Positions 1-48,235 of a stretch of 64,000 nucleotides of DNA are shown here, piece by piece. Position numbers and translations under genes: made by a program. The stretch is taken from the NCBI GenBank assembly GCA_964582965.1, contig CAZOUN010000001.1:4745-68744 (forward strand), written 5' to 3'. The DNA comes from an uncultured Anaerolineales bacterium. Lineage in GTDB: Bacteria > Chloroflexota > Anaerolineae > Anaerolineales > UBA11858. Position 1 is the first letter of the stretch. Each line of letters opens with the position of its first letter. The notes below the pieces were generated by a model that worked only from the letters and a program-made list of their open reading frames with translations, had not been told where the DNA came from and ran no database searches.

Positions 1-1
1 C

Positions 2-877: not shown

Positions 878-990
878 GTAGATAGATTTCCCGCCCGGTT
901 CAACACTCCGGGGGGAACGTTTCACAACCATGATAATTTTGACCTGGGTTGTTTTATCAAGATAACGGAAGGGGAAACTCAAGGAAAACT

Positions 991-1749: not shown

Positions 1750-1765
1750 TATCAGGAGAAAATGA

Positions 1766-3019: not shown

Positions 3020-3097
3020 GGGCCTATATCCCCGAGCGAGATGGGACTGCAAAAGAAATTAACTATTGCTGAAAACAATTTATTAAGGAGATCCTTG

Positions 3098-4489
3098 ATG
3101 GAAAAATCAAAAGTCTATGATTATATGCTTTCGGTTTTGGATAAAGCTGAAAACGGACCGATTCTGGAAGAGAAGGATTGGGACAGACAGTATATTAATC
3201 AATCGATCAAAGACCTGATCAAGAAATATGATATTCAGTGGGATAAAGAAACCATGGTCCCATCAGATGACGCCCTGGCAGACCGCCTCTTTGAGGCCGG
3301 TATGGAGCTGGCCCGAGAGGTGGGCGTGTATTGCCTGGATACCAAGCGCCAGATGAAATGGAACCAAGCGGAGCTGGACTATATTTTATCCACAGCCCCG
3401 GATGAGGAAACTATCGGCTTAGGTGATGACAGTGTCACTATTCGACACAGGCTTCCGGATACAGATGCTGATATCACCACCATCGGCGGCCCTTATGGAA
3501 CACCGGTTCCTGAAGAATTATTTGTGCCGATCATGACCAGCTATGCCCAGGAACGAGATCTGGACTATATAGATAACGCTACTTTGAGCACCACCCACGG
3601 CCGTCCCATTAAAGCTGGTTCACCCTGGGAAGCAGTAGGATGCTGGCAGGAAGCCCAGCTTTCCTTTGAGGTATTGGAACGAGTTGGCCGTCCTGGCATG
3701 CCCATTGGCTGTGCGGAGGATTCGCCTTCCGAGATTGGCGAACTGGCTACCTGCACCTATAACGGGTTCCGGCAAACTGACTGGCACCATGCCTCCTTTA
3801 TTTCAGAATTGAAAGTGGCTTATGCCGAATTGACAAAAGCAATGCACTATCAGCATACCGGATCCTTTGCGCATAATTTCTACAACACAATTTACGGCGG
3901 ATATGTAGGTGGCGCAGATGGATTAGCCGTCGCAATCGTAGCTGGTGTTCTGTTAATGAAAGCAGCCCTGAATGGAAACACATTCAATCCAGGACCCAGT
4001 CATGCCCACCTGAGCTGTAGCACTTTCCCGGCCATGATCCCGGCCTTATCTCTGGGATTCCAGGCCATCAGCCGCAATACCAAATTGCTAACCTCATCAT
4101 TCCCACGCCCTATTGGCGGCCCTTGCACCAAGGAGCTTCTATATGAATCGGCAGCGGTGGGAATTGCTACTGTACCTTCAGGAATTTCAATTCTGGAAGG
4201 CATCCAATCAGCCGCGGGCCGAATCGAAGGGCATGTGACCGGACTGGAAGCCAGATTCCTGGCCCAGGTTGGCCGGGCGACAGTGGGAATGACCCGGGCA
4301 GAAGCCGATCCACTCGTCAGAAAATTGACGCCGTTATATGCGGAACAGCAGAAAACAGGAATCGCGCTGAAAGGAAAACATTTCACAGAGGCTTACGATC
4401 TCGAAACTATCCAGCCTACCGCGGAATGGCAAGGAATTTATGAAGAAGTCTGCCAGGAAATGGAAGACATGCTTGGATTGAAACTATAG
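3098..4489 (+). CDS. MtmB-family methyltransferase, non-pyrrolysine (paralog 2, class A)
   Basis: AAGGAG (3085-3090) lies 7 nt before ATG 3098, so the ORF-track start at 3041 is less likely. Motifs: VPSDDALADRLFEAG, GLGDDSV, GRPGMPIG (Gly at the Pyl-aligned site), IYGGYVGGADG, NPGPSHAHLSC, C-terminal FTEAYDLETIQPTAEWQGIYEEV...LGLKL. Confidence 0.88.
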   Translation: MEKSKVYDYMLSVLDKAENGPILEEKDWDRQYINQSIKDLIKKYDIQWDKETMVPSDDALADRLFEAGMELAREVGVYCLDTKRQMKWNQAELDYILSTAPDEETIGLGDDSVTIRHRLPDTDADITTIGGPYGTPVPEELFVPIMTSYAQERDLDYIDNATLSTTHGRPIKAGSPWEAVGCWQEAQLSFEVLERVGRPGMPIGCAEDSPSEIGELATCTYNGFRQTDWHHASFISELKVAYAELTKAMHYQHTGSFAHNFYNTIYGGYVGGADGLAVAIVAGVLLMKAALNGNTFNPGPSHAHLSCSTFPAMIPALSLGFQAISRNTKLLTSSFPRPIGGPCTKELLYESAAVGIATVPSGISILEGIQSAAGRIEGHVTGLEARFLAQVGRATVGMTRAEADPLVRKLTPLYAEQQKTGIALKGKHFTEAYDLETIQPTAEWQGIYEEVCQEMEDMLGLKL

Positions 4490-4516
4490 GTTTTGGAATC
4501 GAAAAGGATTAATAAC

Positions 4517-5896
4517 ATGAAAAAAGAAAATTACGAATATCTGGCTTCAGTTTTAGAGAAAGCTGATACCGGCCCGGTAATTGAGGAAAAAGAGTGGGAT
4601 TACCAGTATATTGGCGCCAAGACCAAGGATCTGATCAAAAAATATGATATCAGCTGGGACAAAGATACCTATGTGCCCGCTGATGATGATCTGGCGGATC
4701 GCCTGTATCAGGCAGGTTGGGAGCTGGCCCTGGAAAGCGGTGTATACTGCCGCAATACAAAGAAGCAAATGCTTTGGACAGAGGATGAACTAAAAGGAAT
4801 TATCGATTCAGGACCTTCCGAATTGGTTGTTGGAACTGGTGATGATGAAGTTGTAATTCGTCAACGCCGGCCGGAACAGCCCTCCCGGGTCACTATCCTG
4901 GGCGGCGCTTACGGTACCCTGATCGAAGAAGACCTTTTTGGCGCAATGGTGGAAGCCTATGCAAAAGAACCTCTGATCGATATTGTTGAACCCCCTTCCA
5001 TTCCCACTGCTTTTGGCAGGACCATCCGCATTCAATCTCCCTGGGAAGTGATGGCGGCCAGGCGGGAATCGGATCTGGCCCTGGCAGCAGTCAAGCGGGC
5101 TGGCCGACCGGGAATTTGCATTGGCGCGGCAGCTACATCAGGAAGTGAAATTATCGAGCTGGCTGCAACCAGCTATAACGCTTATCGACAAACCGATTGG
5201 CATCACACTTCTTTCGTCAGTGAAAACAAGGTCACTTATGCGGACCTGACCCGGGCAGCTCATTTCTACCTGACCGGATCGGTTGCACACACTTTTTGCG
5301 ATCCGATCTACGGAGGCTACCTTGGGGGTAAAGAGGGCATAGCAATTGGCTGCGTCGCCGGCCCAATCCTCCTGAGAGCAACATTGCTCGGGGATACGGT
5401 TAATGCAGGCCCCAGCCACGCCCATCTAAGCTGTGATACTCATGCGGATCTGCTCGCCGCTCAGGCCCTCAGCTTCCAGGCTATCGCCCGCAACACCCAT
5501 TTGCTGAAAGGGATTCATATTCGACCGGCCCACGGACCGGGAACCAAAGAGATCCTCTATGAAGTAGCAGCCATGGCCATCATGGGTGTGACTTCCGGAG
5601 TGGATTACCTTAAATCTGTCCAATCTGCCTGCGGAGTAAATATGGGACATACATCCCCGGTTGAAGCCCGGTTATGCGCCCGGGTTGCCCATGCTTCGGA
5701 AGCCCTCAGCAGAGAAGAAGGAAACGCCCTGGTGACCCAGCTGGTGAACAAATACCAGGATTTGATACCGACTGCAGATACAGGAATACATTTCCGCGAT
5801 AGCTACAATTTGGAAACCTTGGAACCGGCCCAAGCCTGGCAGAAAATATATGAAGAAGTTGTCTCCGAACTTAGAGAATTGGGTCTATCTATCTAA
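4517..5896 (+). CDS. MtmB-family methyltransferase, non-pyrrolysine (paralog 3, class A)
   Basis: ATG 4517 follows AAAGGA; the ORF-track start at 4493 is TTG. Motifs: VPADDDLADRLYQAG, GTGDDEV, GRPGICIG, IYGGYLGGKEG, NAGPSHAHLSC, C-terminal FRDSYNLETLEPAQAWQKIYEEV..LGLSI. Confidence 0.88.
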   Translation: MKKENYEYLASVLEKADTGPVIEEKEWDYQYIGAKTKDLIKKYDISWDKDTYVPADDDLADRLYQAGWELALESGVYCRNTKKQMLWTEDELKGIIDSGPSELVVGTGDDEVVIRQRRPEQPSRVTILGGAYGTLIEEDLFGAMVEAYAKEPLIDIVEPPSIPTAFGRTIRIQSPWEVMAARRESDLALAAVKRAGRPGICIGAAATSGSEIIELAATSYNAYRQTDWHHTSFVSENKVTYADLTRAAHFYLTGSVAHTFCDPIYGGYLGGKEGIAIGCVAGPILLRATLLGDTVNAGPSHAHLSCDTHADLLAAQALSFQAIARNTHLLKGIHIRPAHGPGTKEILYEVAAMAIMGVTSGVDYLKSVQSACGVNMGHTSPVEARLCARVAHASEALSREEGNALVTQLVNKYQDLIPTADTGIHFRDSYNLETLEPAQAWQKIYEEVVSELRELGLSI

Positions 5897-5917
5897 CCAA
5901 GATTTAAAGAGGCAGAA

Positions 5918-7306
5918 ATGATCGAACCAAAAGTAAAGATCGATGAATTCGTAAATATTTTGGATAAAGCAGAAAATGGCCCCAGGGTGGATATCAAAGA
6001 ATGGGACCAGGTTTATATTTACCAAACCATCAAGGATCTGGTTGAGAAATATGATATCCGTATAGATGTCAAAAATCCGGGAGTTCCTTCTGATGACGAT
6101 CTTGCAGACCGGGTCTTTGAAGCGGCCATGGACCTGGCGGTCCAGAGCGGTGTTTACTGCACGGATACCCAACGCCAGATGATTTTCAGCAGGGATGAAT
6201 TGGAAAAAGTCCTTGCCCGGGTTCCGGAAGAGGTCCAGATCGGCGAAGGACCAGACACTCGTGTAATCAAGAAGAGAATGGTGGACCAGGAAGGCCATGT
6301 AACTATAGGGGGAGGCTTCTGGGGTGTTGTGGTGCCTGAGGACATGCTATTACCCATGACCATGGCGTATGCCCAGATAGAGGAAAATGATTTTCTCTGC
6401 ACCGGGGCTTTGAGAACCACCTATGGGCGCCCCATCCGGGCATACTCTCCTTGGGATACCCTGGCCTGCTGGCAGGAAATGCGCCAGACCTTTGAAGCCA
6501 TTGATCGTGTGGGGCGTCCCGGGATGACAATTTCCGGGCCGAATACCAGTGCCAGCGCCATCGGAACAGTTACTACGGTCACACATGGATGTCTCCGCCC
6601 ATCAGATTATGGAAGTGTTGCCTTCATGAGCGAATTGAAGGTGTCATATGATGACCTGATCCGTGCCTGCCATTACGTCCAGACCAATTCCTTTGCGCAC
6701 AATTTTTACAACCCGATCTATGGCGGTTATGCAGGCGGGGCTGAAGGTGTGGCGGTCGCCCATGTGGCAGGTTTCATATTAATGAAAGCCACTTTGTTTG
6801 GTGAAGCCTTCAATGCCGGGCCCAGTCATGCCCATATGAGCACCAATACTTTCCCACCCTTGATCCCGGCCCAGGCACTGGCACATCAGGCTTTGAGCCG
6901 GAATACCAATATCACCTGCGCGAATTTCACCCGGCCCAATGCTGGCCCGGGAGAGAAAGACCTGCTCTATGAAATTGCAGCCTACCAATTGGCGACTGTG
7001 ACCTCTGGAGTTGAAATAGCTACAGGTGTGCAAACTGCTACTGGACGTCATGAAGCTCATTGTTCACCGTTAGAGGTCCGGTTTTTGATCAAGGTTGTTC
7101 GGGCTGCAGAAAAAATGACCCGAAAAGAGGCAGACCCGATTGTTAAGAAACTGATCGCCCTCTACAGAGACGGCCAGAAAGAACAAAAGATCGGCAAGCC
7201 ATTTAATGAAGTCTATGATTTAGAGACTTTGGAACCCAAATCAGAATGGCAGTCCGTTTTTGATGAAGTAGTAGATGAACTCGTAAGTTTGGGACTAAAG
7301 CTTTAA
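5918..7306 (+). CDS. MtmB-family methyltransferase, non-pyrrolysine (paralog 4, class A)
   Basis: RBS AGAGG precedes ATG 5918. GRPGMTISGPNTS resembles archaeal GRPGMGV-Pyl-GPETS; the Pyl-aligned codon is TCC (Ser206) at 6533-6535. Also IYGGYAGGAEG, NAGPSHAHMST, C-terminal FNEVYDLETLEPKSEWQSVFDEV..LGLKL. Confidence 0.88.
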   Translation: MIEPKVKIDEFVNILDKAENGPRVDIKEWDQVYIYQTIKDLVEKYDIRIDVKNPGVPSDDDLADRVFEAAMDLAVQSGVYCTDTQRQMIFSRDELEKVLARVPEEVQIGEGPDTRVIKKRMVDQEGHVTIGGGFWGVVVPEDMLLPMTMAYAQIEENDFLCTGALRTTYGRPIRAYSPWDTLACWQEMRQTFEAIDRVGRPGMTISGPNTSASAIGTVTTVTHGCLRPSDYGSVAFMSELKVSYDDLIRACHYVQTNSFAHNFYNPIYGGYAGGAEGVAVAHVAGFILMKATLFGEAFNAGPSHAHMSTNTFPPLIPAQALAHQALSRNTNITCANFTRPNAGPGEKDLLYEIAAYQLATVTSGVEIATGVQTATGRHEAHCSPLEVRFLIKVVRAAEKMTRKEADPIVKKLIALYRDGQKEQKIGKPFNEVYDLETLEPKSEWQSVFDEVVDELVSLGLKL

Positions 7307-7326
7307 TTATTTTGAAAGGATTAGCT

Positions 7327-8193
7327 ATGAATAAACCCGAATACCTGGCACCAAAAACCTTAGAGGAAGCCTTCGAGGCGCTTAAGAGTAATCCGGACGG
7401 CACGATGATCATTGCCGGCGGTACCGACATGGTTCCCCGCATGCGAGCTGGTGTTTTTAAACCAGATTTACTGGTTGATCTCCGCCTGTTGGCCTTGGAT
7501 GAGATAACACTTGAGGATGACTTTGTTCGGATTGGCGCTTATGTTACCCATTCCGACATCCTTGGATCACAGCTCTTGAGTGATCAGTTCCCTGCCCTAG
7601 TGGAAGCAGCCAAAGATATTGCTGGGCCTCCTATCCGCAATCGCGGTACGCTGGGTGGCAATCTAGTAAATGCATCACCTGCTGCAGACCTGGCAACACC
7701 CCTGATCGCCTATGATGCGCTAGCGGTCATAGCTGACCAGAGTGGCGAGCGAGATGTGCCGCTGAGTAGATTTTTCACTGGCCCTGGAAAGACAGTGTTA
7801 AAGCCAGAAGAAATTCTTACAGCAATTAAGATCCAGAAAATCTCCAGTAAGACAGGCGCAAAGTTTACCAAGTTGGGTAAAAGAAAAGCAATGGCCATTG
7901 CTGTTGTCAGCGCGGCAGTAAGGATTTCCCTGAACGAAGAAGGAAAAATTCAAACAGCCAGGATTGCCCTGGGGTCTGTCGCACCGGTTCCTCTGCGAGT
8001 TCCAAAAGCCGAGGAAGTTTTGGAGGGGAAAACACCTGACGAAAAATTATTTGCCAACGCCGGACAGACTGCCAGTGAGCAATGCACTCCGATCTCGGAC
8101 CTACGCTCAACGGGTGATTACCGAAAAAAAATGGTCGCGGTTTTGGTCAGAAGGGCTTTATCAGCGGCCTGGGAAAATCTGCAGGCGGAGTGA
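7327..8193 (+). CDS. Molybdenum hydroxylase FAD-binding medium subunit (CoxM/XdhB-like)
   Basis: ~290 aa with IIAGGTDMVP and GTLGGNLVNASPAADL motifs. ATG 7327 follows AAAGGA; the ORF-track start at 7312 is TTG. The 2Fe-2S subunit gene starts 3 nt after its stop. Confidence 0.8.
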   Translation: MNKPEYLAPKTLEEAFEALKSNPDGTMIIAGGTDMVPRMRAGVFKPDLLVDLRLLALDEITLEDDFVRIGAYVTHSDILGSQLLSDQFPALVEAAKDIAGPPIRNRGTLGGNLVNASPAADLATPLIAYDALAVIADQSGERDVPLSRFFTGPGKTVLKPEEILTAIKIQKISSKTGAKFTKLGKRKAMAIAVVSAAVRISLNEEGKIQTARIALGSVAPVPLRVPKAEEVLEGKTPDEKLFANAGQTASEQCTPISDLRSTGDYRKKMVAVLVRRALSAAWENLQAE

Positions 8194-8196
8194 TCT

Positions 8197-8670
8197 ATGA
8201 CTAATATTACTTTGAATTTTACTGTCAACGGAGATCCACAGGAAGTGACCACATCTCCCACAAGCACTTTGCTCAGTGTTTTGCGGGACGAATTGAAATT
8301 GAAAAGCCCTAAGGAAGCTTGCGGTCAGGGAGATTGCGGCGCGTGTGTAGTCCTGCTGGATGGAAAAGCGGTCAATTCCTGTTTGGTCTTGGCTGCCCAG
8401 GCCCAGGGAGCAGAGGTGCTCACTATTGAAGGTTTGGCCGAGCATGGAAAACTACATCCCCTGCAGCGGAACTTTATCGATAATTGGGCCTTCCAATGCG
8501 GCTACTGTACCTCAGGGATGTTGATGTCAGTTTACGGATTGCTCCTGGATAATCCCAAACCGACACGAGAGGAAATTAAAACAGCCATTTCCGGCAATCT
8601 TTGCCGCTGCACAGGTTATGAGGAAATCATTGAAGCTGTGGAAATGACTGCGACCGAGTTAAGTAAATAA
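8197..8670 (+). CDS. Molybdenum hydroxylase [2Fe-2S] small subunit (CoxS/XdhC-iron-sulfur type), set 1
   Basis: 157 aa with both cluster motifs: CGQGDCGACVV..NSC and CGYCTSGM...CRCTGY. Confidence 0.9.
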   Translation: MTNITLNFTVNGDPQEVTTSPTSTLLSVLRDELKLKSPKEACGQGDCGACVVLLDGKAVNSCLVLAAQAQGAEVLTIEGLAEHGKLHPLQRNFIDNWAFQCGYCTSGMLMSVYGLLLDNPKPTREEIKTAISGNLCRCTGYEEIIEAVEMTATELSK

Positions 8671-8698
8671 TCAAGATCTATATGACAAGGAGAACAAT

Positions 8699-9361
8699 AT
8701 GAGTGACTGGAATACATTACAACCGCAATTTATCGATTTGATATTAGCTGGTGATGATGCTGCTGCCATTAAGATGGCCAAGGATTCCCTTGATGGCGGG
8801 ACTACCCCGGTAGAGTTTTTTGAAAATTGTATAGCTCCCTCCTTGAAGGAAGTAGGCAAACGTTTTGAAACGCTGGATATCTTCCTGCCGGAAATGGTCA
8901 CTGCAGCGGATACTGTAGAAGCCGTAAATACTGAAGTGATCAACCCTGCCGTTGCGGAAGCTAATGATGGCACCAGCATGTCCCAGGGCAAAGTACTCCT
9001 AGCGACAGTCCAGGGCGATTTGCACGATATCGGTAAAAACATGGTTGGCCTGATGTTAAAAGTAAATGGCTTTGAAGTTGTTGACCTGGGCACCAATGTT
9101 TCCCCAGCTGATATCGTCGCCAGAGCGGAGCAGGAAGAAGTTGACATCATCGGTATGTCAGCCCTCTTAACCACCTGCCTTCCGTATATGAAAGATGTAG
9201 GCGACCACCTGGTAGCCAAAGATATCCGGGGAAAATATGAGGTCATTATCGGTGGCGCTGCTGCAACCCCAGATGTAATGGAAGAGATGGGTGCCAATGC
9301 CTACGGAAGCTCTGCAGCCGATGGCGTAAAGAAATGTAAGATGCTTTTGGGAAAATTATAA
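8699..9361 (+). CDS. Corrinoid (cobalamin-binding) methyl-carrier protein 1, MtmC/MtbC-like
   Basis: 220 aa with an N-terminal helical cap and a Rossmann B12 domain. Carries GDLHDIGKN (DxHxxG), MSALLTT and IIGGAA. RBS AAGGAG is upstream. Confidence 0.88.
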   Translation: MSDWNTLQPQFIDLILAGDDAAAIKMAKDSLDGGTTPVEFFENCIAPSLKEVGKRFETLDIFLPEMVTAADTVEAVNTEVINPAVAEANDGTSMSQGKVLLATVQGDLHDIGKNMVGLMLKVNGFEVVDLGTNVSPADIVARAEQEEVDIIGMSALLTTCLPYMKDVGDHLVAKDIRGKYEVIIGGAAATPDVMEEMGANAYGSSAADGVKKCKMLLGKL

Positions 9362-9403
9362 CGACAACAGGTTGCTGCTAAGACCTTACGGAAGGAGAAG
9401 ATC

Positions 9404-9862
9404 ATGGCACAGCGCAATAATATGGGCGTGATTGTCGCAGGCGTTACTGGAATGGTGTTTGGTGGTGTTACAGCCGTAGAAGGTTATGTTTCCCGGTCTG
9501 TTGGCGCAGTGAATGCCAGCTTGATCGAACATGTTTTTGCAGCGATGGTGGCTGTTCCCGCGGTGATTTATTTATTCATGCGGGGCAACTTGACATGGGA
9601 AGGGACCAAATCTATCCTTCCTATATCGGCTGTAGCCGGCGTAATGGTCATTATCGCTGTGGCTGGTGTCGCCTATGCCATACCCAAGACCGGTGTTGCG
9701 GCTGGCAATATGGCCATGATGTTTGGTCAGATGGCAGTTGCGGTAGTGATCGATATGATCGGAGTCGGTGGATATGATAAAGTCCCGCTGACCTTACCGC
9801 GAGTTCTTGGCCTTTTACTGATGATCGTTGGTGTTTACTTAGTGCTGCCACGGCAGTCTTGA
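9404..9862 (+). CDS. DUF606/YdcZ-type small DMT-superfamily membrane protein 1
   Basis: 152 aa, about 5 hydrophobic helices. Its C-terminal pattern AIPKTGVAAGNMAMMFGQMAVAVVIDMIG...LLMIVGVYLV parallels the second copy at 48323. RBS GGAGAAG. Confidence 0.6.
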   Translation: MAQRNNMGVIVAGVTGMVFGGVTAVEGYVSRSVGAVNASLIEHVFAAMVAVPAVIYLFMRGNLTWEGTKSILPISAVAGVMVIIAVAGVAYAIPKTGVAAGNMAMMFGQMAVAVVIDMIGVGGYDKVPLTLPRVLGLLLMIVGVYLVLPRQS

Positions 9863-9877
9863 AAACAAGGATGATAT

Positions 9878-12145
9878 ATGCACGACTATGAAATAGTTGG
9901 AAAGGGAATGGCTGCTATTGGGGGGAAGGACGTTGTCACAGGAAAAGCGGTGTACGCACCGGATATTGAATTTTCGGATATGCTGGTTGGGAAACTGCTG
10001 TACAGCCCCTATGCCTGCGCCCGGATTCTCAAGCTGGATGTTGCAAAGGCCAGAGAGTTACCTGGTGTGGTTGCAGTCATGACAGCAGAGGATATTCCTG
10101 GTGAAAACAGCTACCAATACTGGTACAGTGACCAGCCCTTACTGGTGAAGGATCAAATCCGTTATCGAGGAGACCCGCTTGCAGCCGTAGCAGCGGAAAC
10201 AGAAGAGATTGCCCTGCTTGCCCTGGCTGCTATTGAAGTTGAATATGAACCCCTGGAAGGGATATTTGATGTCGATGAAGCCATGCGGCCGGGCGCGAAG
10301 AAGGTCTGGGCAGAGAAAGAGAATATCCACAGCCATCATGTTGAGAGCTGGGGGGATATCGAAGAGGGTTTTTCAAAAGCGGACGTGATCGTTGAAAACA
10401 CCTTCCAAACCTCATATCAGGAACATGCTATGCTGGAAACTGAATCAGCGGTTGCAAAATTGGATCTAGACGGCTCGGTAGTGGTGTATGCCTCCGCCCA
10501 AGCTCCTCACCGCGACCGGATCCAGATTGCCAGGGCTTTAGGTGTGCCTGAAGCGATGGTGCGTGAGATCACTCCTCATATCGGAGGTGCATTTGGCGGG
10601 AAGGATGAAGCCAATATCCAGATTCATGCCGCATTGCTGGCTAACCAGACCAAACGACCGGTCCGCATTGTTAGGACCCGGGAAGAATCTATCCTGACCC
10701 ATGTCAAACGCCACCCGATCAAGGTGAAATACCGCATGGGCGCAACTAAAGAGGGTAAATTAACTGCAATTCATCTGGTGGGTATCGGGGATACCGGTCC
10801 TTATGTGAATGCCGGTGAAGAAGTCATGATGGTGATGGGCGCGTATGGATTCTCACCCTATTTTGTTCCTCACGCCAAGACTGAAGCATATACGATATTT
10901 ACGAATAATCCGATAGGCGGCGCCTTCCGCGGATTTGGTGTACCGCAGGCAACCCTTGCTTTTGAGGGTTCGATGGATGCGCTGGCCAGAGAACTGGAAA
11001 TGGACCCCCTGGAGATCCGGAAGATCAATGGATTAAAAACAGGTCAGAAATTCCAGCCTAATTCTGTAGTACGGCAGGCAGAAGGGCTGCTGGCTTGCCT
11101 AGATAGAGCTGCTGAATTATCAGACTGGAAGAATAGAGGGGAAAAAGAGCGCCAACCTGCCCCGAATCTGCGCCGCGGTTGGGGATTGGCTTTATCCTTT
11201 CATAAAGTAGGTTTTGGACGTAATATACCGGACCACGCCGCCGCTGGCATCAATATGGCCCCGGATGGCTCGGTTTTGGTTCGGACCGGCGGGGCAGATC
11301 TGGGACAGGGCTTACATACACTGATCGCACAATTTGTTGCTGAACAGTTGGGGGTTCCCTTTGATCAGGTGAAGGTATTTAAACCGGATACCACCCTCGC
11401 TGCAGATGCTGGTGCGTCAGTTGCCAGCCGCGCGACCGTTTTTTCTGGAAACGCAACCCTGCGAGCCGCAGCACCCATTCGTCAAGTTCTAATTGATCTT
11501 GCCGCCGCTGAGGTTGGCGCTGATCCAGAACTGATTGATCTAAAAAAAGGATATGTATATGTAGAAAATGAACAGGTCCAGCTTTCTATCCAGGAACTTG
11601 CATCTATGGCTTATGAGAAGAACCTGCCAATGCAGGCGACCGGTTTTTTCACCATGGATTATCCCGAGGTGAAATTGGATGACGGTTCCACCGGATTTGA
11701 ACAAGTGGTTGGATTTGGAGCTCATGTGGCACAGGTCCTGGTTGATGTGGAAACAGGACAGGTTGAGGTGGAGCGGGTCATCGCTGTGCACGATGCTGGC
11801 ACTATCATCAACCCTAAAGGAGCCCGTGGTCAGGTGGAGGGGGCCGTTTCGATGGCCTGCGGTTATGCCTTGATGGAAGAGTTGATTGTGGACCAGGGAT
11901 TGATCCAGAATCCTTCCTTGGAGAGTTATTTGATCCCCACGGTATGGGACGTGCCAGAGATTATTGCGGACTTCGTCGAGATCGAAGATGCTGCGGGACC
12001 ACTTGGGGCCAAAGGATTGGGTGAACCGCCCATGAATATCACTCCAGCTGCGATCGCCAACGCGGTAACTGACGCCATCGGTGTACCCGCTACCCATCTT
12101 CCTATCACGCCTGAACGAGTCTTGTCGTTATTAGAAACTAAGTAA
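9878..12145 (+). CDS. Molybdenum hydroxylase large (molybdopterin) subunit, xanthine dehydrogenase family, set 1
   Basis: 755 aa with GGAFGGKDE, GGAFRGFGVPQ and GLGEPPM (catalytic Glu region). The form I CO-dehydrogenase VAYRCSFR loop was not seen. Confidence 0.88.
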   Translation: MHDYEIVGKGMAAIGGKDVVTGKAVYAPDIEFSDMLVGKLLYSPYACARILKLDVAKARELPGVVAVMTAEDIPGENSYQYWYSDQPLLVKDQIRYRGDPLAAVAAETEEIALLALAAIEVEYEPLEGIFDVDEAMRPGAKKVWAEKENIHSHHVESWGDIEEGFSKADVIVENTFQTSYQEHAMLETESAVAKLDLDGSVVVYASAQAPHRDRIQIARALGVPEAMVREITPHIGGAFGGKDEANIQIHAALLANQTKRPVRIVRTREESILTHVKRHPIKVKYRMGATKEGKLTAIHLVGIGDTGPYVNAGEEVMMVMGAYGFSPYFVPHAKTEAYTIFTNNPIGGAFRGFGVPQATLAFEGSMDALARELEMDPLEIRKINGLKTGQKFQPNSVVRQAEGLLACLDRAAELSDWKNRGEKERQPAPNLRRGWGLALSFHKVGFGRNIPDHAAAGINMAPDGSVLVRTGGADLGQGLHTLIAQFVAEQLGVPFDQVKVFKPDTTLAADAGASVASRATVFSGNATLRAAAPIRQVLIDLAAAEVGADPELIDLKKGYVYVENEQVQLSIQELASMAYEKNLPMQATGFFTMDYPEVKLDDGSTGFEQVVGFGAHVAQVLVDVETGQVEVERVIAVHDAGTIINPKGARGQVEGAVSMACGYALMEELIVDQGLIQNPSLESYLIPTVWDVPEIIADFVEIEDAAGPLGAKGLGEPPMNITPAAIANAVTDAIGVPATHLPITPERVLSLLETK

Positions 12146-12162
12146 ATTTAACCGGGATATAC

Positions 12163-13392
12163 ATGACAGCCGCTTATCAAAATCGCTTGGATAATCTGAA
12201 TAAAGCCTTTCGCCTGGAACTCAAGGAAAAGGTGCTGCTGGCGCCATTCTCGGATCACTTTTTCTCCACCAGAAGGACGGGACTCTCGAATAAAGACGCC
12301 ATGGTGGATCACAAGAAGCGCTATCAGGCAATCAAACAAACTGTCTTGGATTTTGATTTGGATCTGGCGATGCAGTCCGGAGTCTACCCGGCGCAGTGGT
12401 TCTCAGCACTGGATGCTAAACATTATTATTGGCCAGGCGGTGAGCTGCCTGAGGATAAAACCTTCCAATTCAATGAAAAAGAGAACTTGATGGCGGATGA
12501 ATATGACCAATTCCTTGCTGATCCGACAGATTTCACGATCAGGGTGCTCTGGCCGCGTATGACGGGTAAACTGGAACCTATGGCAGCGTTTCCGCCCATA
12601 TTTTCGCTGGGACCGGACCCCATTTTCCTGGGGCCGGCTTTTTCGTATCCTGAGAACCTGGAAGTATTACGGGCGTTGATCAAACTGGGTGAAGCTGCGG
12701 CAGAGTCGGATCAGGCTGGAGCGGAATATGTAGCAGACATGAAAGAGCTTGGTTATCCGGTATCCTATCAGGCTAATTTCACACCCCCCTTTGATATCGT
12801 TGCAGATTTTCTGAGAGGATTAAAGGGAACCATGTTGGATCTGTACAGGCAGCCGGAAAAATTACTAGCTGCAGTTGAACTCTACGTGGAACCCCAGATC
12901 GAAGCCGCAATCAGCTGGGCAGAGGCAGTAGGCAATCCACGGATCGTATTTTGGATGCATAAAGGTGCAGCAGGTTTTATGTCAGATGAGCATTATAAGG
13001 ATTATTACTGGCCCAGCACCAGGAAAGTTATGCTCCGCCTGGTTGAAGCGGGGCTGACGCCGATACTTCATGTCCAGGGAGACTACACCCCCAGGCTAGA
13101 ATATCTAGCCGAGCTTCCCCGCGGCAAAGTGCCCATTCATTATGATCGGGTTGATCACCAGAAAGCCCTGGAGATCATGGGTGACCGCCAGTGCTTCTGG
13201 GGAGGGATCTCTTCGGCATTGTTGGTGACTGGAAACCAGGAGCAGGTGAAGGATGAAGTAATTAAGTTGATAGAATCATTTGGACCACTAGGCGGTTTGA
13301 TTGTGGATGGAAGCGTAGGCATCCCTGACGAAGCCAAGCCCGAGAACATTCAAGCCCTGGTGGACACAGTCCGGTCATACAACGCAGGCTAA
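12163..13392 (+). CDS. URO-D (uroporphyrinogen decarboxylase / MtaA-MtbA-CmuA) family methyltransferase-like protein
   Basis: 409 aa. C-terminal GGLIVDGSVGIPDEAKPENIQALVDTV and LHVQGDYTPRLEYLAELP resemble the URO-D family pattern. The H-x-C zinc motif position of MtaA-type enzymes reads H-V-Q here. The family call is from memory of motifs only. Confidence 0.55.
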   Translation: MTAAYQNRLDNLNKAFRLELKEKVLLAPFSDHFFSTRRTGLSNKDAMVDHKKRYQAIKQTVLDFDLDLAMQSGVYPAQWFSALDAKHYYWPGGELPEDKTFQFNEKENLMADEYDQFLADPTDFTIRVLWPRMTGKLEPMAAFPPIFSLGPDPIFLGPAFSYPENLEVLRALIKLGEAAAESDQAGAEYVADMKELGYPVSYQANFTPPFDIVADFLRGLKGTMLDLYRQPEKLLAAVELYVEPQIEAAISWAEAVGNPRIVFWMHKGAAGFMSDEHYKDYYWPSTRKVMLRLVEAGLTPILHVQGDYTPRLEYLAELPRGKVPIHYDRVDHQKALEIMGDRQCFWGGISSALLVTGNQEQVKDEVIKLIESFGPLGGLIVDGSVGIPDEAKPENIQALVDTVRSYNAG

Positions 13393-13404
13393 GGATAATT
13401 AAAT

Positions 13405-14808
13405 ATGGAGAAGAAACAACGCTGCGATTTATTATTGACCAGAGGAATTGTCATCACAGTAGATGAGGGCAGGCAAGTTTTTGATCCTGGAACGGTGGCG
13501 ATCCAGGGAGATAAGATACTGGCTGTCGGTCCTGCCAGCGAGATGGATCATTTTCAAGCTGATCGCGTGATCGATTGTAAGGGGAAGATGATCACTCCCG
13601 GTTTTGTCGATTGCCACAACCACCTCTTTGAGTCGCTGCTGCGCGGTGTAGGAGAAGGGATGGAGTTATATCCCTGGCTGGCTGAACTGTTGGAACCTTT
13701 CAGCGACAGGGTCACACGGGAGGAAGCTGTCTCGGCGGTATTAAACTGCTCCCTTGAAGCCATTCGAAATGGGACGACATGTATTATAGATAATCATTAT
13801 GGGCCAACCGACCTCGATACGACCCTTGCTGTTGCTGATGCGATCCAGCAGACCGGGTTGCGAGGTGCTGTTGCCCGTGGGATGTATGGGCCCGCTACAG
13901 ATATCTCTGGAGAACATGGATACCAGTTGGAGCGCACCTTTATGTACAGCGTCCAGGAGGAGATAGATATTTCCCGGGATGCCATGAAAGCCCGGCCAGC
14001 TGGCAGTAAAGTCACTGTTTGGCCTGCTCCGGAAAATGTTTCTTATAATCCACATGAACTCGTGATCGGAGCTGTTGAGCTGGCCCGTGAATTTGGAACC
14101 CGGTGGCATACTCATATGGCAGAGGGGGAAATAGAAGACGGCCTTTACAGAAAAGAAAATGGCGTCGGGATGGTTGAGAAGCTTAATCAAGATGATCTAT
14201 TAAGAGATGGAACCTTTGCTCATGCGATCTGGTTGAGCGATCAGGATATTAAAATATTGGGTGAAGCAGAGGCTGGTATCGCCCACTGCCCCGTGAGCAA
14301 TCAGTATTTGGCCACCGGGATCATGAGATTGCGCGACCTCCAGGCTGCCGGCTCAGTAGTAGGCTTGGGTAGTGATGGTTCTTGCTGCGGCAACCAGGAC
14401 TTGATCCTGGCGATGCGGTCCGCAGTACTCCTGCAGCGCGTGAATACCCTGGACCCCACGGTGGCAACAGCCGAACGGGTTTTTGAAATGGCAACTGTAA
14501 ATGGCGCACGTTATGCGGGAATTGATGCTGGTCAAATAGAACCAGGGAAGCTGGCAGATATCATTGTAATAGGCATGGAAGGATCAAGTACTAAACCATT
14601 TAACCGGGCTCTGGGATCGCTGGTTTATAACGGTTCCGGCGCGGATGTTGAGATGACTATTGTAGGAGGTGAAATAATCTTCGAAAACGGAACAATTATT
14701 AATGTTGACGAGATTTCCATCAAAGATGAAGTTCAAAGAAGAGCAGATGAGCTATTCGAACGACTTGGATTGGAAAACTATCGGACGCATTGGATAAAGC
14801 AACCTTAA
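13405..14808 (+). CDS. Amidohydrolase, MtaD/AtzA/guanine-deaminase-like subfamily (copy 1)
   Basis: 467 aa with PGFVDCHNH (HxH), HTHMAEGE, FAHAIWLS and GLGSDGSCCGNQD. These metal and catalytic positions are typical of this subfamily. Confidence 0.8.
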   Translation: MEKKQRCDLLLTRGIVITVDEGRQVFDPGTVAIQGDKILAVGPASEMDHFQADRVIDCKGKMITPGFVDCHNHLFESLLRGVGEGMELYPWLAELLEPFSDRVTREEAVSAVLNCSLEAIRNGTTCIIDNHYGPTDLDTTLAVADAIQQTGLRGAVARGMYGPATDISGEHGYQLERTFMYSVQEEIDISRDAMKARPAGSKVTVWPAPENVSYNPHELVIGAVELAREFGTRWHTHMAEGEIEDGLYRKENGVGMVEKLNQDDLLRDGTFAHAIWLSDQDIKILGEAEAGIAHCPVSNQYLATGIMRLRDLQAAGSVVGLGSDGSCCGNQDLILAMRSAVLLQRVNTLDPTVATAERVFEMATVNGARYAGIDAGQIEPGKLADIIVIGMEGSSTKPFNRALGSLVYNGSGADVEMTIVGGEIIFENGTIINVDEISIKDEVQRRADELFERLGLENYRTHWIKQP

Positions 14809-14812
14809 GGGC

Positions 14813-14831
14813 ATCCCTGTAATTCAGGGAT
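14813..14831 (+). promoter_or_regulatory. Short stem-loop after the amidohydrolase stop codon
   Basis: ATCCCTG (14813-14819) / CAGGGAT (14825-14831) form a 7-bp stem with a 5-nt loop. No T-run follows. Confidence 0.25.
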
Positions 14832-14903
14832 AGCTTAAGTCTAAAACAAAAAATCCGTGCTGATGAAATTGTCCAGAATATTTAGAAAATGGAGAGTTTA
14901 CAG

Positions 14904-15605
14904 ATGACGGAAGATAAATTTATCAAAGATCTTCGAGATGTGATTGCAAATGGCGATGAAGATCAGGCCGCTCCTGCGGCCCAAGCAGCCATTGATGCCG
15001 GCGTGAATCCAGGAACCTTGATTAAGGAAGCTATTAACGGTCCCATGGATGAGGTTGGAAAATCATTCCAGAATGGGGATATATTCCTGCCTGAATTAAT
15101 TATGATCGGAGATGCAGCAAGGGTAGCATCTGATGTGATTCTGCCCTATATATCCGTCGAAGAACAGGATGCTTCCTCGGGTGGAAAAGTGGTCATCGGT
15201 ACTATTCAGGGCGATATGCATGATATTGGCAAGAGTATTGTCTCGGCTTACTTGATGTCGACCGGATTTAAAGTAAAAGATTTGGGATCCGACGTTACAC
15301 CAAAGGATTTTATACGGGCAGCGGTAGATGAAAAAGCAGACGTGATCGCGATATCTACTTTGTTATCAACCACCCAGCCCCTCTTCGCCAATATCGTCAA
15401 GACCTTGGTGGATTCTGGACAGCGAGACAAAGTCTACGTTGTTGTAGGGGGTGGCCCCGTGACACCTGAATGGGCAGCAGACATTGGTGCTGATGGTTAT
15501 GGTCGGGATGCTGCGGATGCTGCTGATCTGGTTCGCCAGGTCCTTACATCTGGTGAAAAACCACCCTTCGCCAAACCAATAGTCATCGGTGCTTTGAAAC
15601 AATAA
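14904..15605 (+). CDS. Corrinoid methyl-carrier protein 2
   Basis: GDMHDIGKS (DxHxxG), ISTLLSTT, VVGGGPV. GGAGAG (14890-14895) sits 8 nt before ATG 14904. The upstream in-frame ATG at 14889 is the alternative start. Confidence 0.85.
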   Translation: MTEDKFIKDLRDVIANGDEDQAAPAAQAAIDAGVNPGTLIKEAINGPMDEVGKSFQNGDIFLPELIMIGDAARVASDVILPYISVEEQDASSGGKVVIGTIQGDMHDIGKSIVSAYLMSTGFKVKDLGSDVTPKDFIRAAVDEKADVIAISTLLSTTQPLFANIVKTLVDSGQRDKVYVVVGGGPVTPEWAADIGADGYGRDAADAADLVRQVLTSGEKPPFAKPIVIGALKQ

Positions 15606-15628
15606 AAGAGGAAAAAAGAGGAGCAATT

Positions 15629-17005
15629 ATGAATAAACCTGAGATTATCAATATCCTGGATCGATCCCAGAACGGAGAATATTGTACGGTGAAAGAATGG
15701 GATATCAAACGCATTCCCAAGGCCGTGAAAGAAAAACTTGAAAAATACGATCTGAAAGGCGCCTGTGATCCTGAAAACCCGGTCAATATGGATGCCGAGC
15801 TGGCTGACCGCTTTTTTAAGGCTGGTTATGAAATGGCCCTGGATCTGGGCATGCTCTGCGAAACAACCGATAGAATAATCAAAGTGTCTAAGGAAGAATT
15901 AGATGCTGCTTTGGAAAAAGCCCCGTCTGAATTAACTATTGGGACTGGCGATGATGCCACGGTAATAAAAACCCGAACACCATCTGACCCCTATGAATGT
16001 AAATTTGGGGCCTCCCTGGGCATCACCGTATCAGAAGACGTTTGGCCAGCCTTGACCGAAGGTATTGCCCGACAGGAAGCTGTGGACGTGCTGGAAGGCG
16101 GCTCATTGAAGTCCATTTATGGACTGGATGTCATTCCTGATGCACCCTCAGAGACCCTGGTAGGTTTTGAGCAGGCTAAACTGCACGTGGAGATCCGCAA
16201 AAAAGCCGGACGTCCGGGGATGGGCGGTATAGGTCAGATCTCGGCCGTGACTGAATATGGTCAGTTTGGCGGCTACGGTATCCCCGGAGCATTACCTATT
16301 ACAGATCTGTCATTGATCTTGTTCCCGTCGGAACTGAAGGTCAATTATCAGACTTTGCACAAGGTGGTGCATACCCTGAATGTTGGCGGTATGATCTTTG
16401 CCGGTTCCCCGGCTATGATCGGCGGTATGCCCGGCCCACCCGAGGGTGCTGTGCTTTCCTGTATTGCTTGTGCCTTGCTGCAGTATCCGATTTTGCAGGC
16501 GGACGTGGGTGGAGGTGAGATCTACGATATCCGCTATCTGTCCAACGTCAATCGCGATGGCATCTGGGCTCTGAGTGTGACTCACCAGGCCCTCAGCCGC
16601 AATACCAATCTTTTGACCCACGGCATTGCCAACCAGGTTTCTGGTCCGGGAACCAAGGAACTTCTTTATGAAACCCTGGTCGGTGTTTCAACCATTGCAG
16701 CTTCCGGAGCTGCATTCTCAACAGGTCCGCGATCGGCGGGTGGAAAATTGGATGACTATCTATCCCCGCTGGAATGTGGTTTCTGCGCTGAAGTATCACA
16801 CGCGGCTTCTGGACTTTCACTTGAAAAAGTGAATGAGATCGCAAAGGCAGTACTGCCGAAATTTGAAGATTCCATCAAGGATCCCCACATCGGCAAGATT
16901 GTTCAGGATGTTTACGACCTTGAGAATTTCAAAGCCAAACCGGAATGGCAGCAAATGTACGATGAGGTTAAACAAGAAGCGATTGACTTGGGATTACCTC
17001 TCTAA
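15629..17005 (+). CDS. MtmB-family methyltransferase, non-pyrrolysine, divergent singleton (paralog 5)
   Basis: Its N-terminus is the closest of the set to archaeal MtmB (MDAELADRFFKAGYEMALDLGMLCETTDRIIKVSKEELDAAL). GRPGMGGIG places ATA (Ile201) at 16229-16231 on the Pyl-aligned site. The GGYxGG motif is replaced by IGGMPGPPEG. C-terminal VQDVYDLENFKAKPEWQQMYDEV..LGLPL. Confidence 0.85.
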   Translation: MNKPEIINILDRSQNGEYCTVKEWDIKRIPKAVKEKLEKYDLKGACDPENPVNMDAELADRFFKAGYEMALDLGMLCETTDRIIKVSKEELDAALEKAPSELTIGTGDDATVIKTRTPSDPYECKFGASLGITVSEDVWPALTEGIARQEAVDVLEGGSLKSIYGLDVIPDAPSETLVGFEQAKLHVEIRKKAGRPGMGGIGQISAVTEYGQFGGYGIPGALPITDLSLILFPSELKVNYQTLHKVVHTLNVGGMIFAGSPAMIGGMPGPPEGAVLSCIACALLQYPILQADVGGGEIYDIRYLSNVNRDGIWALSVTHQALSRNTNLLTHGIANQVSGPGTKELLYETLVGVSTIAASGAAFSTGPRSAGGKLDDYLSPLECGFCAEVSHAASGLSLEKVNEIAKAVLPKFEDSIKDPHIGKIVQDVYDLENFKAKPEWQQMYDEVKQEAIDLGLPL

Positions 17006-17025
17006 GGAAAGATTTGAGATAAGAA

Positions 17026-17063
17026 TTAGTAACTCCTGTTTGATAACAAACAGGAGTTACTAA
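17026..17063 (+). terminator. Strong hairpin after paralog 5: possible terminator or processing/stability element
   Basis: Perfect 17-bp inverted repeat (17026-17042 / 17047-17063, core GTAACTCCTGTTTG ATAA CAAACAGGAGTTAC) with a 4-nt loop, starting 21 nt after the stop. No T-run follows, so it is not a canonical intrinsic terminator. Confidence 0.4.
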
Positions 17064-17129
17064 AACGAAGTTAATTGATGGATGCTTTTTCGGCAAATCG
17101 GAGTCTGACTAAGCTAGGAGGGGTAGTTT

Positions 17130-18506: not shown

Positions 18507-18514
18507 GAAAGGAA

Positions 18515-19903: not shown

Positions 19904-19999
19904 AATTTGTCTGGAAGAAATAATAGGAGGTGAAAATTATAATGTATATTTGTTTTGGTGTACTGAAGATTGATTATTAGATTTACAAAGGAGTTCGAA

Positions 20000-21154: not shown

Positions 21155-21180
21155 AAAAGTTTATCAGTAGAAGTAGATCA

Positions 21181-21216
21181 ATGGCAGCCGGCTTTACGGT
21201 TTAGGCCGGCTGCCAT
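21181..21216 (+). promoter_or_regulatory. Intra-operon stem-loop after the substrate-binding-protein gene
   Basis: Perfect 12-bp arms ATGGCAGCCGGC (21181-21192) / GCCGGCTGCCAT (21205-21216) with a 12-nt loop. It is followed by an A-run, not a T-run. Confidence 0.4.
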
Positions 21217-21236
21217 ATCAAAAAATAGGATTTTAG

Positions 21237-23869: not shown

Positions 23870-23871
23870 TT

Positions 23872-33739: not shown

Positions 33740-33743
33740 ACCC

Positions 33744-36734: not shown

Positions 36735-36773
36735 ACTGCCTCCAGGGTTCTATTATATGCTGGTTCCTGATTA

Positions 36774-38150: not shown

Positions 38151-38166
38151 TTATTCTCTCCCATAA

Positions 38167-38799: not shown

Positions 38800-38833
38800 A
38801 CGGTGCCTCCGAAATTTGAAAAGAAAGCTTGAA

Positions 38834-39586: not shown

Positions 39587-39591
39587 TTTTG

Positions 39592-42088: not shown

Positions 42089-42089
42089 A

Positions 42090-48230: not shown

Positions 48231-48235
48231 CAAAA

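Follow-up and report, generated by a model that had tools for sequence, protein, structure and literature searches.

A molybdenum hydroxylase gene set split by corrinoid and DUF606 genes within a methyltransferase island of an uncultured Anaerolineales bacterium

Why should a corrinoid protein and a membrane protein of the DUF606 family be encoded between the subunit genes of a molybdenum hydroxylase? The arrangement lies in a 64,000-nucleotide (nt) stretch of DNA, below called the window, from an uncultured Anaerolineales bacterium (GenBank assembly GCA_964582965.1, contig CAZOUN010000001.1, positions 4,745 to 68,744 of the forward strand). The original prediction, made from the sequence and its open reading frames (ORFs), was that the split argues for obligatory co-expression and that demethylation and ring hydroxylation of one substrate class belong to a single pathway. 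Our own reading, which we hold with moderate confidence, is that these genes serve one co-expressed anaerobic pathway for the uptake, corrinoid-dependent N-demethylation, deamination and molybdenum-dependent hydroxylation of methylated purine-like heterocycles, the substrate being deduced from the gene families involved.

The split hydroxylase genes and their recurrence

The ORF listing and Pfam scans recover all five genes in the predicted order, i.e., medium subunit (M), small subunit (S), corrinoid protein, DUF606 and large subunit (L). We refer to the enzyme as hydroxylase 1. The genes are listed here with their Pfam matches; FAD is flavin adenine dinucleotide.

7327-8193, plus strand: FAD (medium) subunit M1 (FAD_binding_5 1.3e-48, CO_deh_flav_C 5.3e-28)
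8197-8670, plus strand: 2Fe-2S (small) subunit S1 (Fer2_2 9.2e-33, plus Fer2)
8699-9361, plus strand: corrinoid carrier Corr_1, between S and L (B12-binding 3.9e-25, B12-binding_2 5e-13)
9404-9862, plus strand: DUF606/DMT_YdcZ membrane protein, 15 nt upstream of L (1.1e-17)
9878-12145, plus strand: molybdopterin (large) subunit L1 (Ald_Xan_dh_C, MoCoBD_1 and MoCoBD_2: 1e-29, 9e-78 and 3e-82)

The gaps between these genes measure 3, 28, 42 and 15 nt, in agreement with the 3-42 nt first reported. The flanks are also as described, with three full-length MtmB genes upstream and a URO-D-family gene and an amidohydrolase gene downstream. S1 and L1 are 1.2 kb apart, and the space is filled by the two unrelated genes for Corr_1 and DUF606. 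The start proposed for the FAD gene, 7327, is preferred, as it is an ATG with a ribosome-binding site (AAAGGA) 7 nt upstream; the TTG at 7312 is merely the mechanical ORF start. Gaps of 3-42 nt extend across positions 1766-14808. Promoter-like and terminator-like sites in positions 1-20000 are as numerous as expected from shuffled sequence, given a consensus that may not fit Chloroflexi promoters. The short gaps and the lack of promoter or terminator enrichment suggest that the block is co-transcribed. The block is the center of a ~49-kb island, which is co-directional on the plus strand from 949 to 35975 and continues as a minus-strand arm to 49570.

Loci for comparison were taken from context look-ups, a genome scan and a metagenome scan, together with an alignment of L1 orthologs. 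They carry our own numbers (e.g., L006), and counts are of distinct L sequences that have an S gene upstream. The nearest protein relatives are from Chloroflexi, and the genome scan names Anaerolineales metagenome-assembled genomes (MAGs). The S and L genes are interrupted in 15/33 loci with MtmB or corrinoid genes and in 0/40 loci with neither, where the distance from S to L is -5 to 55 nt. Among the 15 interleaved loci, 11 have corrinoid and DUF606 genes between S and L, two have DUF606 only, and two have corrinoid, MtmB and DUF606 genes. All 15 fall within the L1 clade (65-88% L-subunit identity to the window) and come from independent assemblies. The possibility that the order is unique to this genome, which by the original prediction's own terms would have refuted it, thus fails, since interleaving is found in at least 15 other loci. 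An assembly artefact is ruled out, as the order recurs across many independent assemblies.

Three members of the L1 clade have contiguous S and L genes (L006, L024 and L026), with a gap of 387 nt in L006. We did not find decayed remnants of DUF606 or corrinoid genes in this gap, nor in L024 or L026. In the tree of L loci, which is a neighbor-joining approximation, the interleaved L025 is sister to the non-interleaved L006, and L024 is nested inside the clade. The interleaved state is therefore old and has been remodelled or lost more than once. The order in L006 and L024 is corrinoid-MtmB-...-M-S-L, and Corr_1 is placed elsewhere in these two loci and in L009, without loss of the cluster. A clade at 71% identity (L005, L008 and L013, ~2200-4400) has genes of the luciferase-like monooxygenase and M20 peptidase families among its upstream MtmB and amidohydrolase genes.

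DUF606 is the constant element of the interleaved loci. It lies directly upstream of L1 in all 15 of them, 9-21 nt away. The window protein scores 65.1 bits against a Pfam cut-off of 24 and has about five hydrophobic segments in 152 aa (hydropathy). Of its 111 homologs at E<=1e-5, which form a tight group, all but a few are exactly 152 aa long and at least 45% identical, and those with a named source come from Chloroflexi or Anaerolineales. At least 20 of the 111 are encoded on contigs that match in size those bearing L1 orthologs. From this narrow subfamily and its constant position upstream of L1, DUF606 is a dedicated companion of the L1 hydroxylase clade. The inserted genes had been called methyl-transfer components, which is right for Corr_1 and wrong for DUF606, a membrane transporter-family protein. 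Membership in the DMT family argues for a role in transport. DUF606 proteins encoded by a single gene have been described as homodimeric (PMC3962082), and the homodimer type is expected here, where there is a single gene. We did not find a characterized DUF606 member with a demonstrated substrate in the literature searched.

The link between hydroxylase and methyltransferase genes extends beyond the split. Relatives of 54-58% identity have unsplit M-S-L genes, and 9/12 of them are still among MtmB or corrinoid genes, typically with amidohydrolases. The typical order in this clade is MtmB-amidohydrolase-amidohydrolase-M-S-L-amidohydrolase-corrinoid-MtmB, beside a divergent ATP-binding cassette (ABC) transporter of the Bmp type. 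Among loci of 53% identity or lower, almost every one has plain M-S-L genes and no methyltransferases; L079 is the exception, with five MtmB and three corrinoid genes. Other interleavings exist. In L038 the order is GntR-MtmB-L-DUF606-amidohydrolase, with DUF606 downstream of L. A contig of JGI 3300072015 has an L gene (759 aa), an MtmB gene and a fused M~S gene (467 aa), among amidohydrolase, corrinoid and MtmB genes, and represents an independent mode of interleaving hydroxylase with methyl-transfer genes.

Where genes stay neighbors despite rearrangement, a functional link between them is well supported. The claim that demethylation and hydroxylation are joined in one pathway is supported in this way, as the neighbors persist through changes of gene order and are interleaved in other ways. 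The further claim, that the split argues for obligatory co-expression, is not supported, because 18/33 loci in a methyltransferase context are contiguous, the inserted content varies within the L1 clade, and the insert was lost or never gained in L006, L024 and L026. The interleaving ties the expression of Corr_1 and DUF606 to that of the hydroxylase; the pathway link is independent of the split.

Integrity and specificity of the hydroxylase and its methyl-transfer partners

In the xanthine dehydrogenase family the catalytic base is a glutamate (bovine E1261, Rhodobacter capsulatus E730), and a glutamine lies near the Mo=O group (Q767/Q197). Alignment of L1 with R. capsulatus XdhB places Gln197 at Gln208 and the catalytic Glu730 at Glu716 (in GEPP), so that both are kept, and both are also retained throughout the L1, L2 and 54-58% clades (L2 is the large subunit of a second hydroxylase, described below). 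S1 has all eight cysteines of its two 2Fe-2S motifs, and M1 has the AGGTD and TLGGNL motifs. All seven genes from MtmB_3 through URO-D were compared with five orthologous loci, and the ratio of nonsynonymous to synonymous substitution rates (dN/dS) is 0.03-0.13. These values indicate strong purifying selection and, as dS is saturated, are to be read qualitatively. Corr_1 is the best-conserved gene of the block (81-92% identity, dN/dS ~0.03). A pseudo-enzyme, which the original prediction had set out as a possibility that would undo it, is ruled out by the intact cofactor and catalytic motifs (Glu716, Gln208, eight Cys, FAD motifs) and by dN/dS far below 1.

Hydroxylase 1 has the general features of the xanthine dehydrogenase family, i.e., an a/b-hammerhead and both molybdenum cofactor domains, the catalytic residues, and S and FAD subunits. 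It is not a bona fide xanthine dehydrogenase. L1 has Asp243 at the position of R. capsulatus Glu232 (bovine Glu802) and Val319 at that of Arg310 (bovine Arg880), and it scores 561 against a cut-off of 784 for pucD and 549 against 780 for XdhA. It is not a 4-hydroxybenzoyl-CoA reductase either, with an HcrA score of 551 against a cut-off of 995 and a single Cys in M1, which means that the HcrB-type 4Fe-4S insert is absent. Neither L1 nor L2 reaches the cut-off of any NCBIfam equivalog model. The closest solved structures to L1 are 4-hydroxybenzoyl-CoA reductase and, second, the nicotinate dehydrogenase of Eubacterium barkeri. Xanthine and hypoxanthine had been put forward as candidate substrates. 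They are not the obvious ones, because the Glu802/Arg880 pair that binds xanthine is replaced by Asp243/Val319 in L1. The loop at the Arg880 position is as follows.

L1 clade: GEEVMMVM, Val at the position
54-58% clade: GRDVMNFV, Phe
L2 (window): GIHVMWFV, Phe
Relatives without methyltransferase neighbors: THEVLNKF, Lys

This loop alone differs between the methyltransferase-linked and unlinked clades. Asp at the Glu802 position was rejected as a marker of the methyltransferase-linked clades, as GGAFGGKDEA also occurs in unlinked relatives.

The island has a complete set of corrinoid methyltransferase components: putative methyltransferase I (MT I), in the form of 12 MtmB proteins and a CdmB-like URO-D protein, a Pterin_bind candidate for methyltransferase II (MT II), and the activase RACo. 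Corr_1 has the B12-binding_2 and B12-binding domains of a corrinoid protein together with its motifs DLHDIG (DxHxxG), SALL (SxL) and GG. The ten full-length MtmB paralogs are uninterrupted ORFs that lack an in-frame UAG or pyrrolysine (Pyl) at the position of Methanosarcina barkeri Pyl202 (G, G, S, I, A, G, G, T, N and G in this column) and are not pyrrolysine-dependent MtmB proper. We did not find pyl genes in the window. The first non-Pyl MtmB with a demonstrated function is MtqB, which acts on tetramethylammonium and choline and was described in 2026; in that paper's tree of 1,061 sequences, homologs other than MtqB and the Pyl-encoding MtmBs are of unknown function (PMC13044021).

The full-length MtmB paralogs are mutually 29-61% identical. 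Eight of the ten have orthologs in other genomes that are 70-94% identical (80-94% for MtmB_1-3). MtmB_6 and MtmB_10 have no close ortholog, and the best match of MtmB_9 is 58%. Paralogs that are divergent yet conserved across genomes imply many distinct methyl donors. MtmB_6 was considered as a recent duplicate of a neighbor (at most 54% identity) and as an ortholog of the MtmB at the junction in L011 and L094 (at most 48%), and both origins were rejected.

The sole PDB match of the URO-D protein is CdmB (3.7e-32), and its gene is conserved directly after L1 in 13 loci. CdmB is the MT I of the chloromethane system of Acetobacterium (PMC13222342). As its only solved relative is an MT I, the URO-D protein is probably a further substrate-side methyltransferase and not an MT II. 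A pterin-binding methyltransferase occupies the position after L1 in L009 and L010.

The island, its probable pathway and other explanations

The island contains 12 MtmB genes (one of them truncated where the window ends), five corrinoid genes, five amidohydrolases, two hydroxylases, two DUF606 genes, two ABC transporters, three GntR regulators, one pterin-binding methyltransferase and one RACo activase. Housekeeping genes start at 49754, beyond the island. Apart from the block given above, its features are these.

949-1749, plus strand: GntR/UTRA (HutC-type) regulator heading the block (GntR 2.6e-19, UTRA 5.5e-16)
1766-3019, plus strand: amidohydrolase A, CodA/AtzC-like (cytosine/isoguanine-deaminase type; PDB matches E. 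coli cytosine deaminase, 1.4e-75, then AtzC)
3041-4489, 4493-5896 and 5918-7306, plus strand: MtmB_1-3, non-pyrrolysine, putative MT I (Pfam MtmB 4e-91 to 2e-94, full model)
12163-13392, plus strand: URO-D-superfamily protein, MT I-like (CdmB-like; URO-D 8.2e-19, residues 196-406 only)
13405-14808, plus strand: amidohydrolase B, ATZ/TRZ- or guanine-deaminase-like (Amidohydro_1 4.8e-53; NCBIfam matches below cut-off)
14889-15605, plus strand: Corr_2 (Pfam)
15629-17005, plus strand: MtmB_4 (Pfam)
17130-18506, plus strand: MtmB_5 (Pfam)
18515-19903, plus strand: amidohydrolase C (Pfam)
19970-24798, plus strand: Bmp/PnrA-type ABC transporter, with binding protein, ATPase and two permeases (Pfam)
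24843-25319, plus strand: S2 (Pfam)
25322-26731, plus strand: MtmB_6 (Pfam)
26908-29178, plus strand: L2 (Pfam)
29156-30544, plus strand: MtmB_7 (Pfam)
30808-32157, plus strand: amidohydrolase D (NCBIfam 5'-deoxyadenosine deaminase, 518 against a cut-off of 522)
32195-33049, plus strand: pterin-binding methyltransferase, putative MT II (Pterin_bind 7e-31)
33053-33739, plus strand: 228-aa protein without a Pfam or NCBIfam match, between the pterin-binding methyltransferase and RACo
33687-35564, plus strand: RACo corrinoid reductive activase (four RACo domains; carries its own 2Fe-2S domain)
35592-35975, plus strand: small protein with an allophanate-hydrolase C-terminal/GGACT-like domain (6.3e-38), closing the plus-strand block
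36078-49570, minus strand: Corr_3, MtmB_8, Corr_4, GntR, MtmB_9, second Bmp ABC transporter, MtmB_10, Corr_5 and GntR (Pfam)
48320-48760, plus strand: second DUF606/DMT_YdcZ protein, 146 aa, at the right edge of the island between corrinoid and GntR genes and away from the hydroxylases (Pfam 1.1e-29)

Several of these features recur elsewhere. The GntR regulator at 949-1749 has orthologs in the same position in L001, L002 and L023, and the order Corr_2-MtmB_4-MtmB_5-amidohydrolase C is kept in L002, L005, L008, L011 and L023. The 228-aa protein recurs in L012, L040 and L055, where it keeps its position and is 53% identical. For RACo, the mechanical start (GTG at 33687, overlapping the 228-aa gene by 53 nt) is probably too far upstream. 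The second DUF606 protein is 33% identical to the copy at 9404-9862 over just 72 residues. The 124-nt gap between MtmB_4 and MtmB_5 contains a perfect 17+17 bp palindrome with a 4-nt loop at 17026-17063 (TTAGTAACTCCTGTTTG ttat CAAACAGGAGTTACTAA). It is unique in the window and could be an operator, attenuator or terminator.

The second hydroxylase is also split, in the order S2-MtmB_6-L2 followed by MtmB_7. It lacks a dedicated FAD subunit gene and may share M1, whose gene lies 17 kb upstream. In the six L2-clade orthologs from methyltransferase islands, and in the more distant L042, no gene separates S2 from L2 (7-52 nt apart). The context in L043 is permease-permease-S2-L2-MtmB, with MtmB_6 missing, and no ortholog of MtmB_6 is present in any locus compared. 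Because the L2-clade relatives are contiguous and MtmB_6 is without an ortholog, the S2/L2 split of the window is recent and, so far, unique.

The transporters and amidohydrolases point to the substrate. The Bmp binding protein of one of the two transporters has AtzT as its best PDB match (2e-77), and AtzT was co-purified with guanine (PMC6834077). Amidohydrolase A scores 384 in the NCBIfam cytosine-deaminase subfamily, below the cut-off of 438. Amidohydrolases B-D resemble guanine deaminase, 8-oxoguanine deaminase, adenosine-type deaminases and ATZ/TRZ hydrolases, and the PDB neighbors of D include guanine deaminase and 8-oxoguanine deaminase. To judge from these resemblances, the island would take up N-methylated N-heterocycles with amino or oxo substituents, most likely methylated purine or pyrimidine bases, and would demethylate them and degrade the ring.

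Family membership suggests the steps of the pathway; their order, a single transcript, the role of DUF606 and the class of substrate are likewise proposed. Uptake would be by the AtzT-like, guanine-type Bmp ABC transporters and probably also by DUF606, although DUF606 may instead export a product. Each non-Pyl MtmB would act as an MT I and methylate the Co(I) of its matching corrinoid protein with an N-methyl group of the substrate, Corr_1 being the partner of the adjacent MtmB_1-3. Transfer from there to tetrahydrofolate would fall to the pterin-binding methyltransferase, while RACo would re-reduce oxidized corrinoid. The CodA-like and guanine-deaminase-like amidohydrolases would strip exocyclic amino groups. 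The two molybdenum hydroxylases would hydroxylate the ring, with a substrate loop that is unlike that of unlinked relatives and lacks the basic residue of xanthine dehydrogenases. The small protein at 35592-35975 could bear on downstream nitrogen release. The placement of Corr_1 and DUF606 between S and L would be a lineage-specific order from the ancestor of the L1 clade that was later remodelled.

A locus found by searching from MtmB_3 bears on how general the hydroxylase is. L098, from an Acidimicrobiia MAG (GCA_029980125.1), has five MtmB genes, an amidohydrolase, two Bmp genes and an ABC transporter, with no corrinoid protein or hydroxylase called within 10 kb. It also encodes a homocysteine S-methyltransferase-domain protein and two GCV_T proteins, which may mean that this other phylum uses a different methyl acceptor. 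A second context derived from MtmB_3 has the order corrinoid-MtmB-Bmp-ABC-amidohydrolase.

A number of points weigh against an anaerobic pathway for methylated purine-like heterocycles. A hydroxylase is not universal in clusters of MtmB, Bmp and amidohydrolase genes, and hydroxylation may be an optional add-on, because the clusters in L098 and L099 have no hydroxylase. As such clusters occur without it, the core association is MtmB with Bmp and amidohydrolase, and the hydroxylase is a regular partner in Anaerolineales lineages. The window has neither downstream ring-cleavage genes nor Wood-Ljungdahl genes. A search of Rfam gave nothing at the gathering threshold (whole window) or at E<=0.5 (1-50000) except for a chance match to a small nucleolar RNA, and thus no purine-type riboswitch or other element that would name a ligand. 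The substrate is suggested by distant family resemblances, and the same families serve triazine, pterin and pyrimidine metabolism. The loci were annotated by BLAST against the proteins of the window, so that only families present in the window are visible, and the metagenome contigs have no taxonomy and were de-duplicated solely by identical L sequence. The host is uncultured, and the reading rests on sequence.

Other explanations can be weighed on the same evidence. The substrate may belong to another class, such as N-methyl pyridinium or pyridine compounds (trigonelline, 1-methylnicotinamide), pterins or flavins, or s-triazines. The structural relatives of L1, with 4-hydroxybenzoyl-CoA reductase as the best and the E. 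barkeri nicotinate dehydrogenase as the second, are consistent with this, as are the AtzT, AtzC and ATZ/TRZ likenesses throughout the island. Cationic N-methyl heteroaromatics would also be chemically ideal for attack by Co(I), in parallel to the quaternary amines of MtqB. However, guanine is the native ligand of AtzT (PMC6834077), five deaminase-type amidohydrolases suit amino-purines and amino-pyrimidines better than pyridines, and L1 has Val where nicotinate dehydrogenase retains Arg. We consider another substrate class unlikely.

The genes may also be unrelated neighbors. The MtmB and corrinoid proteins would then act on quaternary amines, the hydroxylases and amidohydrolases would form a separate set for purine salvage or catabolism within the same plastic island, and the interleaving would be neutral shuffling. 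The sole characterized non-Pyl MtmB does use quaternary amines (PMC13044021), some MtmB clusters have no hydroxylase, and the genes of the island are reordered very readily, as five different interleavings occur and many relatives are contiguous. Yet the co-localization holds from 49% to 88% L identity, while 40/40 outside relatives are plain M-S-L, and subunit genes of one enzyme are separated in methyltransferase contexts only. The DUF606 subfamily is restricted to the L1 hydroxylase clade, and the transporters are of the Bmp nucleobase type and not of the betaine/choline type. A chance neighborhood is, on balance, quite improbable.

A third explanation is that the still methylated heterocycle is hydroxylated first, so that its ring nitrogen leaves more easily upon attack by Co(I), or that the hydroxylase feeds low-potential electrons to the corrinoid and RACo system, with the gene order reflecting a complex of hydroxylase, corrinoid protein and DUF606. 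Prior hydroxylation has a precedent in caffeine dehydrogenase, which acts at C8 (PMC4408171). The loop lacks the Glu802/Arg880 pair, which binds unmethylated xanthine. Conservation within the block is highest for Corr_1, and DUF606, from a subfamily dedicated to the clade, is always 9-21 nt upstream of L1. Against this, the proposed interaction is purely hypothetical, Corr_1 is elsewhere in L009, L006 and L024 with the cluster retained, and RACo has its own 2Fe-2S domain. DMT proteins are not known to serve as redox anchors. We think this explanation very unlikely to be correct.

Release of methylamine, in which the amidohydrolases would cut N-methylamino groups (N6-methyladenine, N4-methylcytosine) in the manner of AtzB/AtzC and MtmB would demethylate the freed monomethylamine as in methanogens, would fit the Pfam assignment of MtmB as the monomethylamine methyltransferase family, the closeness of amidohydrolase A to AtzC, a remover of N-alkylamine, and the similarity of amidohydrolases B-D to ATZ/TRZ hydrolases, but it is highly improbable given that all ten full-length paralogs lack pyrrolysine, the methylamine-activating residue, that no pyl genes are in the window, and that twelve divergent paralogs conserved across genomes would be needless for one small substrate.

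A pathway for methylated purine-like heterocycles is thus the reading that we retain. More tentatively, and as a possibility that we would not yet favor, the bacterial non-Pyl MtmBs (~1,000 proteins) may include oxygen-independent corrinoid N-demethylases for methylated purine and pyrimidine bases, which in Anaerolineales would be encoded in a single operon with deaminases and dedicated molybdenum hydroxylases. If so, the bases could be modified nucleobases released as RNA and DNA are turned over, or methylxanthines of plants, caffeine among them, and the island would encode an undescribed anaerobic route for degrading methylated nucleobases, with the methyl groups feeding one-carbon metabolism. 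The anaerobic degradation of methylated purines (caffeine-type alkaloids, 7-methylguanine, methyladenines) is essentially unknown, and a corrinoid route would fill this gap. Such a route would matter for the turnover of carbon, nitrogen and methyl groups in anoxic sediments, lakes and wastewater, as well as for what becomes of the micropollutant caffeine. An Anaerolineae genus was enriched 8.7-fold in anoxic caffeine microcosms, where demethylation was attributed to archaea (bioRxiv 10.64898/2026.01.06.697959). In the literature searched, which included few subscription papers, we did not find a prior description of clusters of MtmB with hydroxylase genes or of corrinoid demethylation of methylxanthines or methylated nucleobases. 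The non-Pyl branch of MtmB gains concrete candidate substrates that are testable. The unusual, recurrent splitting of S and L by pathway partners marks hydroxylases with a new specificity, along with a dedicated subfamily of DUF606 transporters.

Comparison with known systems

The methyl-transfer genes are most like the three-component systems MtmB/MtmC/MtbA of methanogens, MtgBCA of Desulfitobacterium, MtqBC of Methanococcoides (PMC13044021) and CdmBCA of Acetobacterium (PMC13222342), with which they share an MtmB-family MT I, a DxHxxG corrinoid protein, an MT II candidate and RACo. To its MtmB-family MT I genes the island adds a CdmB-like member of the URO-D family. Unlike these systems, the MtmBs of the island are without pyrrolysine, 12 paralogs occur together, and the host belongs to the Chloroflexi and is neither a methanogen nor an acetogen. 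The modules of the island also lie amid hydroxylase, deaminase-type and nucleobase-transporter genes, with one corrinoid gene inside a hydroxylase set.

Hydroxylase 1 resembles PucCDE/XdhABC, the E. barkeri nicotinate dehydrogenase, 4-hydroxybenzoyl-CoA reductase and CoxMSL in its M-S-L order, cofactor motifs and catalytic Glu and Gln. It differs from them in the separation of S and L, in Asp/Val at the substrate positions, in scores below the cut-offs and in the lack of a 4Fe-4S insert, and S2-L2 is without its own FAD gene. Aerobic caffeine degradation proceeds by Rieske N-demethylation (NdmABCDE) or by a caffeine dehydrogenase of the xanthine dehydrogenase family that oxidizes C-8 (PMC4408171). 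If purines are the substrates, the logic of the island would be the same, i.e., N-demethylation together with molybdenum-dependent ring hydroxylation. Unlike the O2-dependent Rieske demethylation of the aerobic pathways, the route in the island would be oxygen-independent and corrinoid-dependent. Homology to the Ndm proteins was not observed, although no search aimed at it was made.

The Atz components are the closest solved relatives of the island's binding protein and amidohydrolases, namely AtzT and the kin of AtzB and AtzC. Corrinoid methyltransferases and molybdenum hydroxylases are both absent from the atrazine pathway, whose own parts were recruited from purine and pyrimidine metabolism. 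The components of the island are all of known kinds. The novelty lies in how they are combined and in hydroxylase genes that are split repeatedly.

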